From an uncultured Verrucomicrobiae bacterium (lineage in GTDB: Bacteria > Verrucomicrobiota > Verrucomicrobiia > Chthoniobacterales > Xiphinematobacteraceae), in the NCBI GenBank assembly GCA_963706715.1, contig CAVPNI010000001.1:766239-830238 (forward strand): a stretch of DNA of 64,000 nucleotides, read 5' to 3'. The notes beneath the pieces were generated by a model that was not told the origin of the DNA, did no database searches, and saw only the letters and a program-made list of their open reading frames with translations. Below are positions 33,816 through 39,572 of the stretch, piece after piece (the stretch's first letter is position 1; every line of letters begins with the position of its first letter). The translations under genes and the position numbers were made by a program.

Positions 33816-34103
33816 ATGGAAACACTGACAAAAAATACAGATGCAAGCACGACTATTCCCAACCTGACGGCGGTCTTAGACCGTGCTGCGATCGATATCA
33901 CATTCCGTCAAAAGCTTCTTGATAGTCCATATGAGACGCTAGCTGAACTTGGTTTGCCTGAGCACGAGGCAAACCTTCTTGCACCCATGCGACGCGTCGC
34001 TCTCGAAGAATATGGCGTGGATGTGCGACGGTTTCGTCCATTCCTCCGTGACAATGGAGCCAAAACAGGTGGGGGACCAACACGGACGCGCGTCACCTGT
34101 TAG
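33816..34103 (+). CDS. Putative RiPP precursor with an NHLP/LigA-like helical leader
   Basis: 'VLDRAAIDITFRQKLLDSPYETLAELGL' leader-like segment; short tail DNGAKTGGGPTRTRVTC; first gene ahead of the modification enzymes. Confidence 0.75.
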   Translation: METLTKNTDASTTIPNLTAVLDRAAIDITFRQKLLDSPYETLAELGLPEHEANLLAPMRRVALEEYGVDVRRFRPFLRDNGAKTGGGPTRTRVTC

Positions 34104-34190
34104 TTGCGCGTGTTGAACTATCTCAATATAACTCTACATTGATACATTCAAGCGACTGGCACCGAATGCGGGACATTTAAGGCATATCAT

Positions 34191-34928
34191 ATGCATAAAC
34201 AAACAGACATTTTTTTACTGGGAACAGGGATACATTCAACCGTTCAATTAACACTAGAAACGATCCAAGCCCTAAAAATTTGTAAACAGGTTTACGTGCT
34301 ACATGATGATTTAGACGTGCTCCGCAGGCTTTCGGAATACAATAGCAGCATCAATGACGTGGCCTACCTATTTGAAAAAGGCGGAAAACGTTGTGATGCT
34401 TACAAGGCAATTTCTCACCTGGTTGTCGATTCCGCTCGCCAGGAGGCGCCAGTCGCTTTTGTTGTTCATGGTCATCCTTTATTTCTCGTTTCAGCTACAG
34501 AATATACTCTCGAGCTTGCTCAAGCAAATGATCTCATTGCTACGGTATTGCCAGGCATCAGTTGTCTAAATACCATTATGTGTGATCTTCAGATTGACCT
34601 TGGCTATGCATTGCAGATCTACGACGCGACGCTTCTCGTCGATGGAAAATACGCAATAAATCCGTCAATACCTCTTTTAGTTTTTCAACTCACTAGTCTT
34701 TTGACAGACCATGTAATCGCTGATTCACCCGACTACAGCACACTGGAACCACTGGTAAAACATCTGCTCAATTTTTATCCAGAACAACACGAGGCTGTTA
34801 TTGTAAATTCGTCGTCTCATACTTTAGATCGAGCAGAGCGTTCCAGTGTAACTATTGGGACCTTAGGAATGAATGAAAAAATTCCTCTTTGGAAAAGACC
34901 TTCACTCTATGTCCCTACCAGTTGTTAA
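34191..34928 (+). CDS. Borosin-like (tetrapyrrole-methylase fold) SAM-dependent peptide N-methyltransferase
   Basis: 'LLGTGI', 'KRCDAY' (RxxxY), 'VVHGHPLFLV', 'VLPGISCLNTIMCDLQID' match the OphMA/SonM pattern. Confidence 0.8.
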   Translation: MHKQTDIFLLGTGIHSTVQLTLETIQALKICKQVYVLHDDLDVLRRLSEYNSSINDVAYLFEKGGKRCDAYKAISHLVVDSARQEAPVAFVVHGHPLFLVSATEYTLELAQANDLIATVLPGISCLNTIMCDLQIDLGYALQIYDATLLVDGKYAINPSIPLLVFQLTSLLTDHVIADSPDYSTLEPLVKHLLNFYPEQHEAVIVNSSSHTLDRAERSSVTIGTLGMNEKIPLWKRPSLYVPTSC

Positions 34929-37022: not shown

Positions 37023-38904
37023 AGACCAATCAATAGCATTTATTGGTTCGAGTCTTTCACTCCAAGCTGCTGAAAAGATTGCATTCCCTCATCTTAATGT
37101 GAGGGGTCCCGCTCGCCGTGGAGATATCGAGAATGCTGTGCGCCAGGGGGTTAAACGTATTTATCTCATAGATGGCGTATTGATTGGTGATTATCCTCCC
37201 TCACCATACGAAATTGTAGCGGCGATGCAGAAGGGTGTCATGATGTTGGGAGCGGCGTCATTAGGTGCCATCAGAGCAGTTGAATTGAGCAGGCATGGTA
37301 TGTTGGGTATAGGGTGGGTTTACAACCAGTATCTACAAGGGAAAATTGTTCGTGATGACGAATTATTGGTTCTGTTCACAGAAAACAATTTCAGGGCTCT
37401 GACGTGGCCTTTGGTGAACCTTCGCTATGCCATAGCATGGTTAACTCGGAACAGAAAAGTCGATTTAAGAAAAGGCCTTAACTTTCTCAAAAGATGCGAA
37501 CAAGTATATTTTACGGAACGCACCATTCCAACGTTGGTGAAAATGGCGATAGACGTTGGAATAGAAAAAGCAAACGTCAATGATATTTTCAATCCGCGTT
37601 TTGATATCAAACGTCTTGATGCAATGCGCTGTATCCAGCGTTATAACGGATCATTGTCTGACAAAATCCGTAAAAATGAACCTCGACGTGGATACTGGAG
37701 ATGTACGTTCCAGAAATCGTTAATTCCCACCGTTCAAGAAGGCAAAATCGATCGGATCGGAGACACGACTGGTTTCGATGAAACTTTTATCCCTACTTCA
37801 GTCGCAATCCGGGCAGGGACTGAAGACATAATTTGGGTATATAGCGGTAAAGGTGAAACACAGGAACAGGCAAGATTGGGGGCATTGATGGAAGCTGTAG
37901 AAAGAAGTTCGGCTCTATGGGATGTTTCTCAAGTTGTCATCCGTGATGTAAAAAAGACACCATTTCGTGAAGAAAGTTGGGAACCGCGATTATTTACTTA
38001 TAACCAATCAGATGTAACAAATTATGTCTGGTGTTTGGCAGAGAGAATTGTATCGAAGCAACCGGTTTGGGTTCCGGCTGATATTGTCTTTTGGGGGCGA
38101 CGTCCAAACTGCCTTCCGCCTTCGCCATTTAAAGTAAACACAACTAACGGCCTTGCTGCTAACTTTAGCAGAGAACAAGCCGTGCTTGCGGGTCTCATGG
38201 AAGTAATAGAGCGACACCTTGTTTCCTTGCTTGATATTCGGAATTCGGTCATTCCGGAGATCAAACTAAAATATATTGCTGCCTGCCTAGGGTTATCCAT
38301 GCCAAAGGAAATTTGTGACGATGTGGACGGCGTGATCGAGCTTAACACCAATTCATTACCTGAGCGCTGTCAGGTGCTTGTCAAACGCTATAAGAGAGCG
38401 GGTTACTGTCCTCGTGTTCTTGCCTTGCCGAACAAGTTTTCTCTACCGTTATTTGCGGCATCTGTTGTAGAACAAATGCCCAACGGAGAGTTTTTGGCTG
38501 CGGCGGGCTACGGTTTGAAATCTAGTCCTGAGGAAGCCTGTGTTTCAGCATTATTGGAACTTGCTCAATCACGGGCGACGGATCGTCAAGGCGCACGCGA
38601 GGATTGCGGCACTGACACTAAATCCCGTTACGATAATAATTGTAGAACATCGTGGCTTCTGAGCCAAAATATTCCTTGTTCATCGTACCATGATATTCTC
38701 CCAAGCGTGTCTGCATCATGTAGTTCACCAGAGCAAATTTGTCAGATACTTGAAGCTGCAGAAATTGTTGAGCCAGCAATATATCAATTTAAGGGTATTT
38801 CCGGAGTGTCCGTCGTTCGGGTGATTATTCCTGAGGTAGAAACGTGGCATCCCACCGGCGGAGATTCGATTTTTGGTCCTGCTGCAAAACAATTGTGTAC
38901 GTGA
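37003..38904 (+). CDS. TfuA-YcaO fusion protein (putative thioamide synthetase)
   Basis: N-terminal TfuA motifs 'GPARRGDI', 'LIDG', 'GAASLGAIRAVEL'; YcaO motifs 'SGKG...ALMEAVER', 'TNGLA...EVIERH', 'ELAQSR...GARED'. Confidence 0.9.
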   Translation: MHVCSNEDQSIAFIGSSLSLQAAEKIAFPHLNVRGPARRGDIENAVRQGVKRIYLIDGVLIGDYPPSPYEIVAAMQKGVMMLGAASLGAIRAVELSRHGMLGIGWVYNQYLQGKIVRDDELLVLFTENNFRALTWPLVNLRYAIAWLTRNRKVDLRKGLNFLKRCEQVYFTERTIPTLVKMAIDVGIEKANVNDIFNPRFDIKRLDAMRCIQRYNGSLSDKIRKNEPRRGYWRCTFQKSLIPTVQEGKIDRIGDTTGFDETFIPTSVAIRAGTEDIIWVYSGKGETQEQARLGALMEAVERSSALWDVSQVVIRDVKKTPFREESWEPRLFTYNQSDVTNYVWCLAERIVSKQPVWVPADIVFWGRRPNCLPPSPFKVNTTNGLAANFSREQAVLAGLMEVIERHLVSLLDIRNSVIPEIKLKYIAACLGLSMPKEICDDVDGVIELNTNSLPERCQVLVKRYKRAGYCPRVLALPNKFSLPLFAASVVEQMPNGEFLAAAGYGLKSSPEEACVSALLELAQSRATDRQGAREDCGTDTKSRYDNNCRTSWLLSQNIPCSSYHDILPSVSASCSSPEQICQILEAAEIVEPAIYQFKGISGVSVVRVIIPEVETWHPTGGDSIFGPAAKQLCT

Positions 38905-39572
38905 AGCTATATTGGAGATTTGCTAACGAAGCGGTGCGAATCGCTGGCGCGGTGCCACCAGTGAAACTCAACTTAAATTATGGAATTCAGTCACTGGACT
39001 CCCCATTCTGTACAAAGGATTATATCGCTCGGTGGAGAGCTATAGAGGGAGGCGCAAAAGTCCAACCGGCTGACTGCCCTCCTATCCGTACGATCTCACG
39101 ATATGGATTTTGTGTCGTTTCACCGGGAGTAGTAATATTGGAACGATCCGAAGAATTTTGCAGAGAACGTATTCTAAATTCCGAGTTCGCGATTTTTGGA
39201 CTGTGTAAAGTCAGTGGAGCAAGTTGGCCTGGCACCGACTCAAATTTCATTGCGAGCTGGATTGCCGGTTCAGAATACGCAAAAATCCACACTGGAATCG
39301 AAGTGCTATTTCCTGCGGGTGTCCTGCTTTATCAAGGACCGATTCCCAATGGAATTCTTGTAGAAAAAATTGTTCCAGATGTCATGGCGGGACTCGAATT
39401 TTTCAACAAAAAGCGGTCGATTCAAATTGATGAAGAGCTATTTGGTGTTGCGGAAATGAATATTATAGTCAGGCTGCCACAAATTGGACAACGAACAGAA
39501 ATTCCATGCGGTAATCCTTTAGCTTGGTTTTTTGGGCTAGATCGGAATCTTGAGTGCGATCAGATTATTTGA
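38901..39572 (+). CDS. Hypothetical protein, possibly DUF6065/dUTPase-like fold
   Basis: GTGA overlap with the YcaO stop; 'CPPIRTISRYGF', C-terminal 'IPCGNPLAWF'. Confidence 0.55.
   Translation: MKLYWRFANEAVRIAGAVPPVKLNLNYGIQSLDSPFCTKDYIARWRAIEGGAKVQPADCPPIRTISRYGFCVVSPGVVILERSEEFCRERILNSEFAIFGLCKVSGASWPGTDSNFIASWIAGSEYAKIHTGIEVLFPAGVLLYQGPIPNGILVEKIVPDVMAGLEFFNKKRSIQIDEELFGVAEMNIIVRLPQIGQRTEIPCGNPLAWFFGLDRNLECDQII

Follow-up and report, generated by a model that had tools for sequence, protein, structure and literature searches.

The window analysed here, 64,000 nucleotides of contig CAVPNI010000001.1 from an uncultured Verrucomicrobiae bacterium, carries at 33816–39572 an operon that appears to encode a peptide made on the ribosome and modified after translation (RiPP). 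Five co-oriented reading frames, all present in the list of open reading frames (ORFs) of this interval, encode a 95-residue precursor peptide, a 245-residue class III (TP_methylase) S-adenosylmethionine-dependent methyltransferase related to borosin enzymes, a PhyH-type Fe(II)/2-oxoglutarate dioxygenase, a 633-residue TfuA-YcaO fusion, and a conserved 223-residue protein that belongs to no named family. Pfam and NCBIfam scans returned the families that a preliminary description of the locus had proposed. The observation made in that description turned out to be real but incomplete, and is confirmed in part: it overlooked an insertion element of the ISL3 family, a linked aspartyl-tRNA synthetase (AspRS), an invariant Asp-Asn-Gly (DNG) core in the precursor, and the fold of the fifth protein. 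Its interpretation is likewise supported in part. On the whole we lean slightly towards a reading in which an acquired and now decaying RiPP operon modifies the DNG core, with an AspRS of a distinct type, called type B below, serving as the immunity factor.

The dioxygenase gene is broken in this genome. Its start overlaps the methyltransferase stop, and its frame is split into an N-terminal piece of 52 codons (34909–35064, plus strand), which aligns with the N-termini of intact relatives, and a C-terminal piece (36453–37022, plus strand), which matches PF05721 with an E-value of 4.5e-22. Between them lies a 1,380-bp ISL3-family element (35065–36444, minus strand), recognised by Pfam and NCBIfam ISL3 matches, with its boundaries set by local alignment. 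The element encodes a transposase on the minus strand (35126–36280; NF033550, E 8.7e-74), ends in terminal inverted repeats that are imperfect and gapped in the local alignment, and is flanked by an 8-bp target duplication, AAAATTAT, at 35057–35064 and 36445–36452. When the element and one copy of the duplication are taken out, the two pieces are in frame and give a stop-free gene of 241 codons, which matches the length of intact relatives in the alignment. The C-terminal fragment keeps the HxD motif (PPHQD) and the distal His (VHHSFTVHRS), and the motifs of the HxD...H facial triad are present in an ORF that is split. The PhyH assignment of the preliminary description stands, but not the intactness of the gene; similarly, the stop/start overlap it reported for the four genes after the precursor is seen once the element is removed and not in the sequence as it stands. 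In the PhyH homologue of a Glaciimonas locus (L013, 8713–9423), CQD replaces the HQD iron ligands.

The ISL3 element is active, or recently was, because three other full-length copies with 99% identity are found elsewhere in the 3.04-Mb genome. A public DNA run (X1) contains contigs that are 90–99% like the cluster. One of these contigs (626 nt, 5 differences over 568 aligned bases) joins position 35056 to 36445 and skips 1,388 bases, with 8 bases that fit either side. This element-free contig indicates that an uninterrupted allele exists in a relative and that the insertion is specific to this strain. The insertion is probably also polar on the downstream genes. A sequence of about 62 bp close to the element's right end (36353–36413, element positions 1289–1349) recurs with 82% identity at more than 30 further sites, which are spread over all four contigs of the genome. 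It looks like a dispersed short repeat, resembling repetitive extragenic palindromic (REP) sequences or miniature inverted-repeat transposable elements (MITEs), that is carried by the element or adjoins it.

The precursor (33816–34103, plus strand) was recognised from weak family matches, an alignment, and a motif shared by its homologues. Its matches to PF14407, Frankia_peptide (E 2.9e-4, 21.5 bits vs. a cut-off of 48), to the Os1348/NHLP model NF038399 (E 3.3e-6, 27.1 bits vs. 40), and to DurB-like leaders are all below the curated cut-offs. Many of its close homologues carry a precomputed PF14407 match or an NCBI name, which for these precursors is 'Os1348 family NHLP clan protein'. A profile of the family gave weak matches in the PDB to the LigA-like domain of gallate dioxygenase, NHLP leaders, the nitrile hydratase alpha subunit, and the 85-residue entry 6lk7. 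The PDB name of the latter is 'Nitrile hydratase, alpha chain', and by a guess we take it to be the crystal structure of Os1348. In the accessible part of one source (PMC12353581), ECOD places Frankia_peptide in a LigA-like group with the helical domain that follows the methyltransferase domain of OphMA. The profile matches and this grouping agree, and the earlier description of the leader as NHLP/LigA-like is right because of the shared group. The peptide consists of such a helical leader, a conserved segment, the motif D79-N80-G81, and a variable tail of 14 residues. An alignment of 16 precursors is conserved nearly end to end, with invariant positions that include V61, L63, E64, E65, G67, D69, R71, and D79-N80-G81. 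The DNG motif is found in all 120 homologues listed, out of 171 profile matches. In these homologues the sequence before it reads M-R-R-V-A-L-E-E-W-G-V-D-V-R-x-F-R-x-F-L-x, and after it come (N)K and a variable tail of 3–51 residues.

Since about 70 of the 80–95 or so precursor residues are conserved, including the region just before DNG, the product might be a small folded protein that is modified and works intact, for example as a regulator or carrier, a role suggested for the related protein Os1348, which forms a dimer in the crystal. No protease is encoded in the conserved gene set, and according to PMC7726476 the Os1348 protein of Pseudomonas sp. Os17 has a folded, dimeric structure and influences antibiotic activity. 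However, a variable tail after an invariant motif is typical of a follower or recognition sequence, and transporters follow the cluster in loci L002 and L008 and possibly in the window. Long conserved leaders are normal in precursors of the NHLP/proteusin type, and the enzymes of the Os1348 cluster (GNAT, HEXXH, SagB-like) are quite different. An intact protein product therefore seems to us quite improbable, and a RiPP precursor is the preferred reading of the 95-residue peptide.

The methyltransferase (34191–34928, plus strand) matches PF00590 above the cut-off (E 7.3e-14), which identifies the TP_methylase (class III) fold. When the single sequence was searched against the PDB, all 25 matches were borosin N-methyltransferases (dbOphM, MroMA, OphMA, and SonM) with E of about 1e-12. 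With the family profile, the best 25 of 25 chains are borosin enzymes (E from 1e-27 to 3e-24), and the next matches are uroporphyrin(-III) methylase (0.0047) and diphthine synthase (0.019). The NCBIfam YabN model scores 58.6 bits vs. a cut-off of 525. The profile search places the enzyme among the borosin N-methyltransferases, apart from the tetrapyrrole and MazG/YabN methylases, which was the check that had been proposed for its borosin likeness. The motifs GTGI, R67xxxY71, HGHP, and LPGIS, on which that likeness had been based, are all readable in the translation. A large protein collection holds 84 homologues at E ≤ 1e-5, the best of them, apart from the query itself, being 51% identical; identity within the family is 36–51%, and the named homologues are from Amycolatopsis, Prauserella, Nocardia, and Jonesia.

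All 22 aligned methyltransferases have R67 and Y71, which align to R72 and Y76 of dbOphM. Among SonM mutants, R67A is essentially inactive, Y71F shows a ~100-fold loss, Y58F a ~14-fold loss, and Y93F a 1.6-fold loss (PMC8429565, the part available). Other borosin signatures are altered. The motifs YGHP and DCLFAD are used in borosin mining, as stated in the accessible part of a preprint (10.1101/2021.12.24.474128); neither is found here. The family conserves VHGHPLFLVSA, with an invariant His in place of the Tyr of YGHP, and has SSFDTLLCD (SCLNTIMCD in the window copy) where DCLFAD would be expected. The second active-site Tyr is missing as well, for position 58 is Ala opposite Tyr63 of dbOphM/OphMA in a linear HMMER alignment. 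The equivalence of OphMA Tyr63 and SonM Tyr58 was deduced from a constant offset of 5 in three matching pairs. Position 61, opposite OphMA Tyr66, is Tyr in the other 21 of the 22 relatives and Phe in the window enzyme.

The complex of two methyltransferase copies (alignment A1) with one precursor (alignment A3) was predicted in three runs, with three controls. The ipSAE values were 0.79, 0.74, and 0.79 vs. 0.00 for the best of the three controls; contact agreement between the runs is 71% or more, and the partner pLDDT does not fall below 61. Among solved complexes 116 of 157 reach this mark, against 2 of 215 mismatched pairs, a comparison that is rough here, given that the job used custom alignments and three chains. 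In the model, precursor residues 74–86 (R-P-F-L-R-D-N-G-A-K-T-G-G) touch one protomer at positions 37–42, 58, 61, 67–68, 71, 92–93, 99–102, 166–169, 209–214, and 234–236, and the backbone of L77–G81 runs along the catalytic motifs. The leader helix 21–37 is predicted to touch residues 2–5 and 22–30 of the other protomer and 16–18 of the first. This controlled modelling, which had been suggested as a check of precursor binding, supports that binding without showing it, and it singles out the invariant DNG segment as the putative substrate. The pass may partly reflect likeness to known structures, because the SonM–SonA and OphMA complexes are already solved.

The methyltransferase is likely to work like a split borosin; that it is a borosin is unproven. 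Because the family departs from the borosin signatures, backbone N-methylation is something we infer and not a matter of family membership. A different nucleophile can also be envisaged, namely the side-chain amide of Asn80, the carboxylate of Asp79, or the sulfur of a thioamide (giving a thioimidate), in which case the enzyme would be no borosin proper. The invariant His for the Tyr of YGHP, SFDTLLCD for DCLFAD, and the Ala opposite OphMA Tyr63 would all fit such a shift, as would the fixed polar DNG core, which is unlike the hydrophobic stretches of known borosin cores. Three loci that lack TfuA-YcaO (L002, L008, and L016) keep the methyltransferase, PhyH, and fifth proteins, which fits methylation of a side chain or carboxylate but speaks against a thioamide as the obligate substrate. 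On the other side, the only significant solved relatives of the enzyme are backbone N-methyltransferases, the SonM equivalents of its invariant R67 and Y71 matter most for catalysis, and the model lays the L77–G81 backbone along the catalytic motifs. The Tyr-to-His change need not alter the chemistry, because SonM Y93F loses only 1.6-fold in efficiency. Another nucleophile appears to us possible though rather doubtful, and backbone N-methylation is kept as the preferred reaction.

The TfuA-YcaO fusion (37003–38904, plus strand) contains a YcaO domain and its TfuA partner in one ORF of 633 residues (PF07812, E 4.3e-28; PF02624, E 5.1e-42). Its best NCBIfam models are the TfuA and YcaO proteins of McrA-glycine thioamidation, both below cut-off. 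The gene is present in a single copy in this genome. TfuA and YcaO are separate, adjacent genes in 11 of 15 related loci and are fused in the window.

The last gene (38901–39572, plus strand) most likely starts at GTG 38901, where GTGA overlaps the YcaO stop, because relatives align from that point on; the alternative GTG at 38844 (242 residues) is less likely. No Pfam or NCBIfam family matches the protein. An AlphaFold2 model based on a 12-sequence alignment has a mean pLDDT of 91 and a pTM of 0.84. A Foldseek search of this model against the PDB gave nothing at E ≤ 0.001, the best matches being dUTPases at ~0.02. In an exhaustive VIA-align comparison, the top 22 matches are all dUTPases or dCTP deaminases, with Z from 9.2 (root-mean-square deviation 5.0 over 121 residues) to 4.8 and an identity of 6–18%; unrelated folds appear only at Z ≤ 4.0. 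The protein can be given a predicted beta-barrel fold of the dUTPase/dCTP-deaminase kind, and only that. DUF6065, a lead with 14% in the ESM Atlas, was not used, Pfam giving no such match at E ≤ 0.1; the Atlas otherwise returned unnamed clusters, mostly viral. In L007 (an Amycolatopsis metagenome-assembled genome, MAG), about 1.5 kb (6623–8188) separates the YcaO gene from the dUTPase-fold gene, which in the other loci abut or almost do so, and this gap contains an antisense ORF of 468 residues with no Pfam match.

The same gene order recurs in other genomes. The arrangement is no chance one, and the gene set is a conserved RiPP-like operon, in support of the earlier view of a RiPP operon. Scanning one genome per species produced 28 pattern matches; 15 loci among them were confirmed, and their gene content was determined by tblastn with the window proteins. 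The precursor and methyltransferase are present in 15 of 15 loci, PhyH in 14, TfuA and YcaO in 11, and the 223-residue protein in 11. These 15 genomes belong to four phyla and include Actinomycetota, a cyanobacterium, a Vicinamibacterales MAG, Acinetobacter, and Glaciimonas. L002 (a cyanobacterial MAG) and the Acinetobacter loci L008 and L016 have the order precursor, methyltransferase, PhyH, fifth protein without TfuA-YcaO, and L015 (Micromonospora) has the precursor and methyltransferase only. ThiF-like genes follow the cluster in L013 (Glaciimonas) and L014 (Jonesia). L013 has no dUTPase-fold gene; a ThiF-family gene (11908–12717) and a TauD dioxygenase gene (12762–13808) precede its AspRS gene instead. 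An MccB-like adenylyltransferase role for this ThiF protein was considered and abandoned, since a ThiF gene also comes after the cluster in Jonesia, where type-B AspRS is lacking. A sulfur-relay role in thioamidation would be the simpler reading. In Pseudonocardiaceae clusters, a gene for a 477-residue class-I methyltransferase overlaps the stop of the dUTPase-fold gene (L003:12054–13487; also L004, L006, and L007, with remnants in L053). Its product matches MTS and PrmA, and weakly PCMT (E 2e-4), and it is absent from the window. Among 30 relatives of the window genome (4 of the same genus and 26 of the same order), no homologue of the operon methyltransferase was found save one 26%-identical methylase in G015. 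Hence the operon was acquired horizontally.

A full-length, bacterial-type AspRS gene (39590–41446, minus strand) lies 18 bp beyond the last operon gene and is convergent with it. The protein aligns over residues 36–613 to the AspRS of T. thermophilus (E 5e-145) and keeps all catalytic motifs, the anticodon-binding domain, and the GAD domain; translation may in fact begin at an ATG inside the ORF, ~28 codons from its first codon. It is an extra copy, the genome having three AspRS loci: the window copy, a broken copy that is 74–81% identical to it, and a copy that is 43% identical. The broken one, also of type B, lies on contig 3 (947578–949331; L045:9555–11335, minus strand) as two overlapping frames of 422 and 174 residues, and adjoins a GNAT acetyltransferase and an ISL3 transposase. 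No other cluster genes were found beside it on contig 3, nor any second copy of the cluster. Each of the 30 relatives has one AspRS, 42–46% identical to the window copy.

In a maximum-likelihood tree of 24 AspRS rows (one short row was dropped), the nine type-B rows, although from different phyla, form one clade with 100/100 support, and the type-A rows follow host taxonomy; a long-branch warning applies to the rows of Glaciimonas and Vicinamibacterales. The 9 type-B and 15 type-A sequences have different fixed residues at fifteen positions, which cluster in a few motifs. From A to B, T becomes S in the TPEGARD loop, the motif-2 loop RADRQP-EFTQ becomes RADRSPGEFYQ, HPFT becomes NPFS, and GGGSxRIH becomes SSGAxRNH. 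In E. coli AspRS, the aspartate side chain is contacted by the His of HPFT and by the Arg of the last of these motifs. The link of the synthetase to the operon is genomic only, and the fixed active-site differences hint at insensitivity.

Besides the window, type-B AspRS genes (53–60% identical) lie within 8 kb of the cluster in L003–L007, L012, and L013. Type B thus stands beside 8 of 12 TfuA-YcaO loci. In a ninth, L011, frameshifts have broken the AspRS gene, and the PhyH and fifth genes are broken too. In the genomes of L009 and L010 type B is found elsewhere. Both types occur together in the window genome (G000) and in G001, G003, G004, G005, G045, and G184. Type B only is found in the Vicinamibacterales MAG (G002) and in S. 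iakyrus (G036). In Jonesia (G037), which has the full TfuA-YcaO cluster, only type A was found, and the three searched genomes with the TfuA-YcaO-less variant (G038, G039, and G040) have type A and no type B. A sample of 151 genomes from the family of G001, the Pseudonocardiaceae (six flagged as unpublished: G163, G169, G078, G102, G127, and G044), contains type B in 6 genomes, including G163, and the operon methyltransferase in 2. G001 and G045 (the genome of L004, by matching coordinates) have type B beside the full cluster. In G184, where the cluster has decayed, it adjoins fragments of the dUTPase-fold gene and of the class-I methyltransferase gene. G131 and G134 have type B as the sole AspRS in a rarA/relA/ppi neighbourhood, the usual actinomycete aspS region; G163 was left out. 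Among 61 Streptomycetaceae genomes, the family of S. iakyrus, 27 have type B only, 33 type A only, and 1 neither at E ≤ 1e-100. Bacterial AspRS exists in two active-site types, either of which can take the place of the other as the only AspRS of a genome, as in these Streptomycetaceae and in 2 of 151 Pseudonocardiaceae with B alone; we know of no description of such a split, for which the literature was not searched.

A second copy of the target beside a biosynthetic cluster is a classical form of self-resistance, as with mupirocin, borrelidin, and albomycin, and the cluster shows such an arrangement: a second, divergent AspRS is linked to it in genomes that also have a housekeeping copy. Type B as a dedicated immunity clade was rejected, being the sole AspRS in many genomes; it is a normal, functional AspRS isoform. 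In hosts with type A, a type-B copy accompanies the operon in its TfuA-YcaO form, and S. iakyrus, which relies on type B, has none at the cluster. We give immunity by an insensitive isoform a little more than an even chance.

The synthetase could instead be neither target nor immunity gene, being either a passenger from an ancestral type-B host or a biosynthetic enzyme, for example one that provides charged tRNA or activates a modified aspartate. This would agree with its ordinary housekeeping use in many actinomycetes and with the Jonesia cluster that lacks it, and the fixed changes, lying in the amino-acid pocket, would also fit an altered substrate. However, the gene is found in three arrangements: actinomycetes have it upstream and divergent, L012 and L013 have it downstream and co-directional, and in the window it is downstream and convergent. 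Such variety across four phyla favours selection over inertia. The retained motifs and domains are those of a working synthetase, the cluster contains no tRNA-dependent peptide modifiers of the LanB or PEARL kind, and S. iakyrus, with type B only, has no extra AspRS copy at its cluster. We consider a passenger or biosynthetic AspRS unlikely and prefer the immunity role.

What the analysis shows is which families the genes belong to and how they are conserved, the insertion, the clade of the AspRS with its linkage to the operon, and a predicted binding; every chemical step, the target, and the immunity role are inferred, as follows. The leader would rest partly on one protomer of the dimeric methyltransferase, and F76-L77-R78-D79-N80-G81 would be fed into the active site of the other protomer. 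The core would be methylated there, most likely at a backbone amide nitrogen. TfuA-YcaO would turn a backbone amide into a thioamide, plausibly at Gly81 by analogy with the thioglycine of McrA, and the PhyH dioxygenase would hydroxylate, plausibly at the beta-carbon of Asp79 or Asn80. The dUTPase-fold protein may perform a further, unspecified step. Type-B AspRS would confer immunity as a naturally insensitive isoform of the target of the product, carried into type-A hosts with the TfuA-YcaO operon. In this genome the pathway is probably no longer functional, because the dioxygenase was recently split by the ISL3 element, Tyr61 of the methyltransferase is lost, and the second type-B AspRS copy is broken. 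A bolder proposal, which we hold only tentatively and think less likely to be right than wrong, is that the operon defines a new RiPP class in which the borosin-like methyltransferase, TfuA-YcaO, the PhyH hydroxylase, and the dUTPase-fold protein make the DNG core into an inhibitor of bacterial AspRS, with type B (its aspartate pocket remodelled to NPFS and SSGAxRNH) as the immunity determinant.

Several observations weigh against the reading of an acquired RiPP operon with AspRS immunity. The precursor is conserved as a whole, in the leader and beyond it, as would suit an uncleaved modified small protein. The His for the Tyr of YGHP and the Ala for OphMA Tyr63 mean that the chemistry may differ. 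The dUTPase-like fold of the fifth protein gives no function. Jonesia has the full cluster and only type-A AspRS, and type B is the sole AspRS in 27 Streptomycetaceae, G131, G134, S. iakyrus, and the Vicinamibacterales MAG; because of this housekeeping use, the link could be due to descent from a type-B host with a hitch-hiking neighbour. Finally, five loci are from Pseudonocardiaceae/Nocardia and are close kin, so that the counts overstate the independence of the cluster-bearing genomes.

The surroundings of the operon are rich in mobile elements. An ABC transporter gene with fused membrane and ATPase domains (41744–43438, plus strand; PF00664, PF00005) follows the AspRS gene. The protein could be an exporter, and whether it belongs to the cluster is uncertain; L002 has an ABC transporter of 28% identity after its cluster. 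Further downstream lie another ISL3-like transposase, recognised from its translation (43482–44720), a group II intron reverse transcriptase/maturase (45796–47277), and a D5_N/DUF5906 primase-like gene (47431–49077), and these place the cluster in a mobile-element-rich region. Upstream are an ORF of 1,289 residues without a Pfam match at E ≤ 0.001 (26405–30274), two overlapping ORFs of 158 and 177 residues whose translations resemble a frameshifted transposase (30469–31424), and a fragment of a UvrD-like helicase in which about 190 profile positions are missing from the start of the helicase domain (31517–32830). An ORF of at least 2,766 residues (55702–63999), with strongly negative GC skew and positive AT skew, runs off the window end, which is also the contig end. 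Base composition gives no island signal, with a GC fraction of 0.445–0.46 across the cluster vs. 0.40–0.50 elsewhere in the window. Scans of 33000–41700 found 12 promoter sites vs. a shuffle mean of 13.5 and 8 terminator sites vs. 8.6, no excess in either case. The window copy of the operon is an acquired island under erosion by insertion elements, and in this respect it is the more ordinary part of the story.

Backbone N-methylation and thioamidation are the two ribosomal routes to protease-resistant backbones, and to our knowledge no characterised pathway combines them. With a fixed three-residue core and a family that extends across several phyla, the chemistry should be mappable by a single co-expression. 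The linked AspRS offers a concrete and cheaply testable target hypothesis. Natural AspRS inhibitors are rare, microcin C being the one known to us. The existence of two AspRS active-site types, one of which travels with the operon, may matter for antibiotics directed at aminoacyl-tRNA synthetases; if the proposal of an AspRS inhibitor is true, the pressure of such compounds would help explain the replacement of type A by type B in 27 of 61 Streptomycetaceae.

Microcin C, a RiPP too, has a warhead that is formed from a C-terminal Asn and that inhibits AspRS, according to PMC8597713 and PMC7136475. It differs from the present system in its MccB-type adenylyltransferase, which is not in the conserved set of the operon. 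Its immunity depends on MccE/MccF and is not known to involve an AspRS copy. The Os1348 cluster of Pseudomonas sp. Os17 (Takeuchi et al. 2020, PMC7726476, the part available) is alike in the NF038399 name, for which the window peptide is below cut-off, and in the Pfam clan, and it is linked to antibiotic activity. It differs in its GNAT, HEXXH, and SagB-like dehydrogenase proteins, none of which is shared with the operon.

Preliminary work on the locus knew of no characterised pathway with this combination of enzymes. The literature search agrees, as no paper in full text was found to pair a borosin-type methylase with TfuA-YcaO or this operon with AspRS, but the family was already catalogued: an NCBI family name exists, and four of its precursors form 'Network 27' of RiPPER (Santos-Aberturas et al. 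2019, PMC6511847, Supplementary Dataset 4, in the part available). They come from Jonesia quinghaiensis, Amycolatopsis orientalis DSM 43388, A. halophila YIM 93223, and Streptomyces iakyrus, which match the records of L014, L003, L004 (strain YIM 93223), and L009, respectively, as far as the available part goes. The searched text of that paper mentions no methylase or dioxygenase and does not discuss Network 27 ('aspartyl' was not among the terms). This entry shares the precursor family with the operon and differs in being a catalogue entry only. Two apparent parallels were set aside: a Burkholderia cluster with fused tfuA-ycaO (PMC8120280) is a different cluster with radical SAM genes, and 'TfuA' in a cysimiditide preprint is the name of a precursor, an unrelated match.

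The systems with TfuA-YcaO, namely McrA thioglycine formation and RiPPs of the thioviridamide type and thiovarsolin, have both domains, which are fused here; the invariant core Gly, the McrA-glycine pair as best NCBIfam models, and the ThiF-like genes after the cluster in L013 and L014 add to the likeness. They differ in that the scores are below the McrA equivalog cut-offs, the precursor family and partner enzymes are other ones, and 4 of 15 operon loci are without TfuA-YcaO. Split borosins (SonM/SonA of Shewanella oneidensis; types IV–XI) are the closest solved relatives by sequence. They share a separate enzyme of the TP_methylase fold with a helical-leader precursor, the Arg/Tyr pair of SonM (R67 and Y71), and a core placed in the active site of a dimer, here in the predicted complex only. 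In contrast, the window methyltransferase is only remotely similar to them, with His for the Tyr of YGHP and a changed DCLFAD; the window leader is LigA/NHLP-like (PF14407), with no match to the five-helix BBD domain of SonA in the profile search; and the operon has an invariant polar DNG core with TfuA-YcaO, PhyH, and the dUTPase-fold protein alongside. YcaO, TfuA, and thioamide are absent from the searched text of four borosin papers (10.1101/2021.12.24.474128, 10.1101/2024.01.09.574750, PMC11395268, and PMC10549244), whose supplementary Pfam tables might list such clusters. In general, the family is an uncharacterised hybrid of known RiPP chemistries, with a fixed DNG core, a dUTPase-fold component that is new, and a link in the genome to an AspRS isoform of distinct type.

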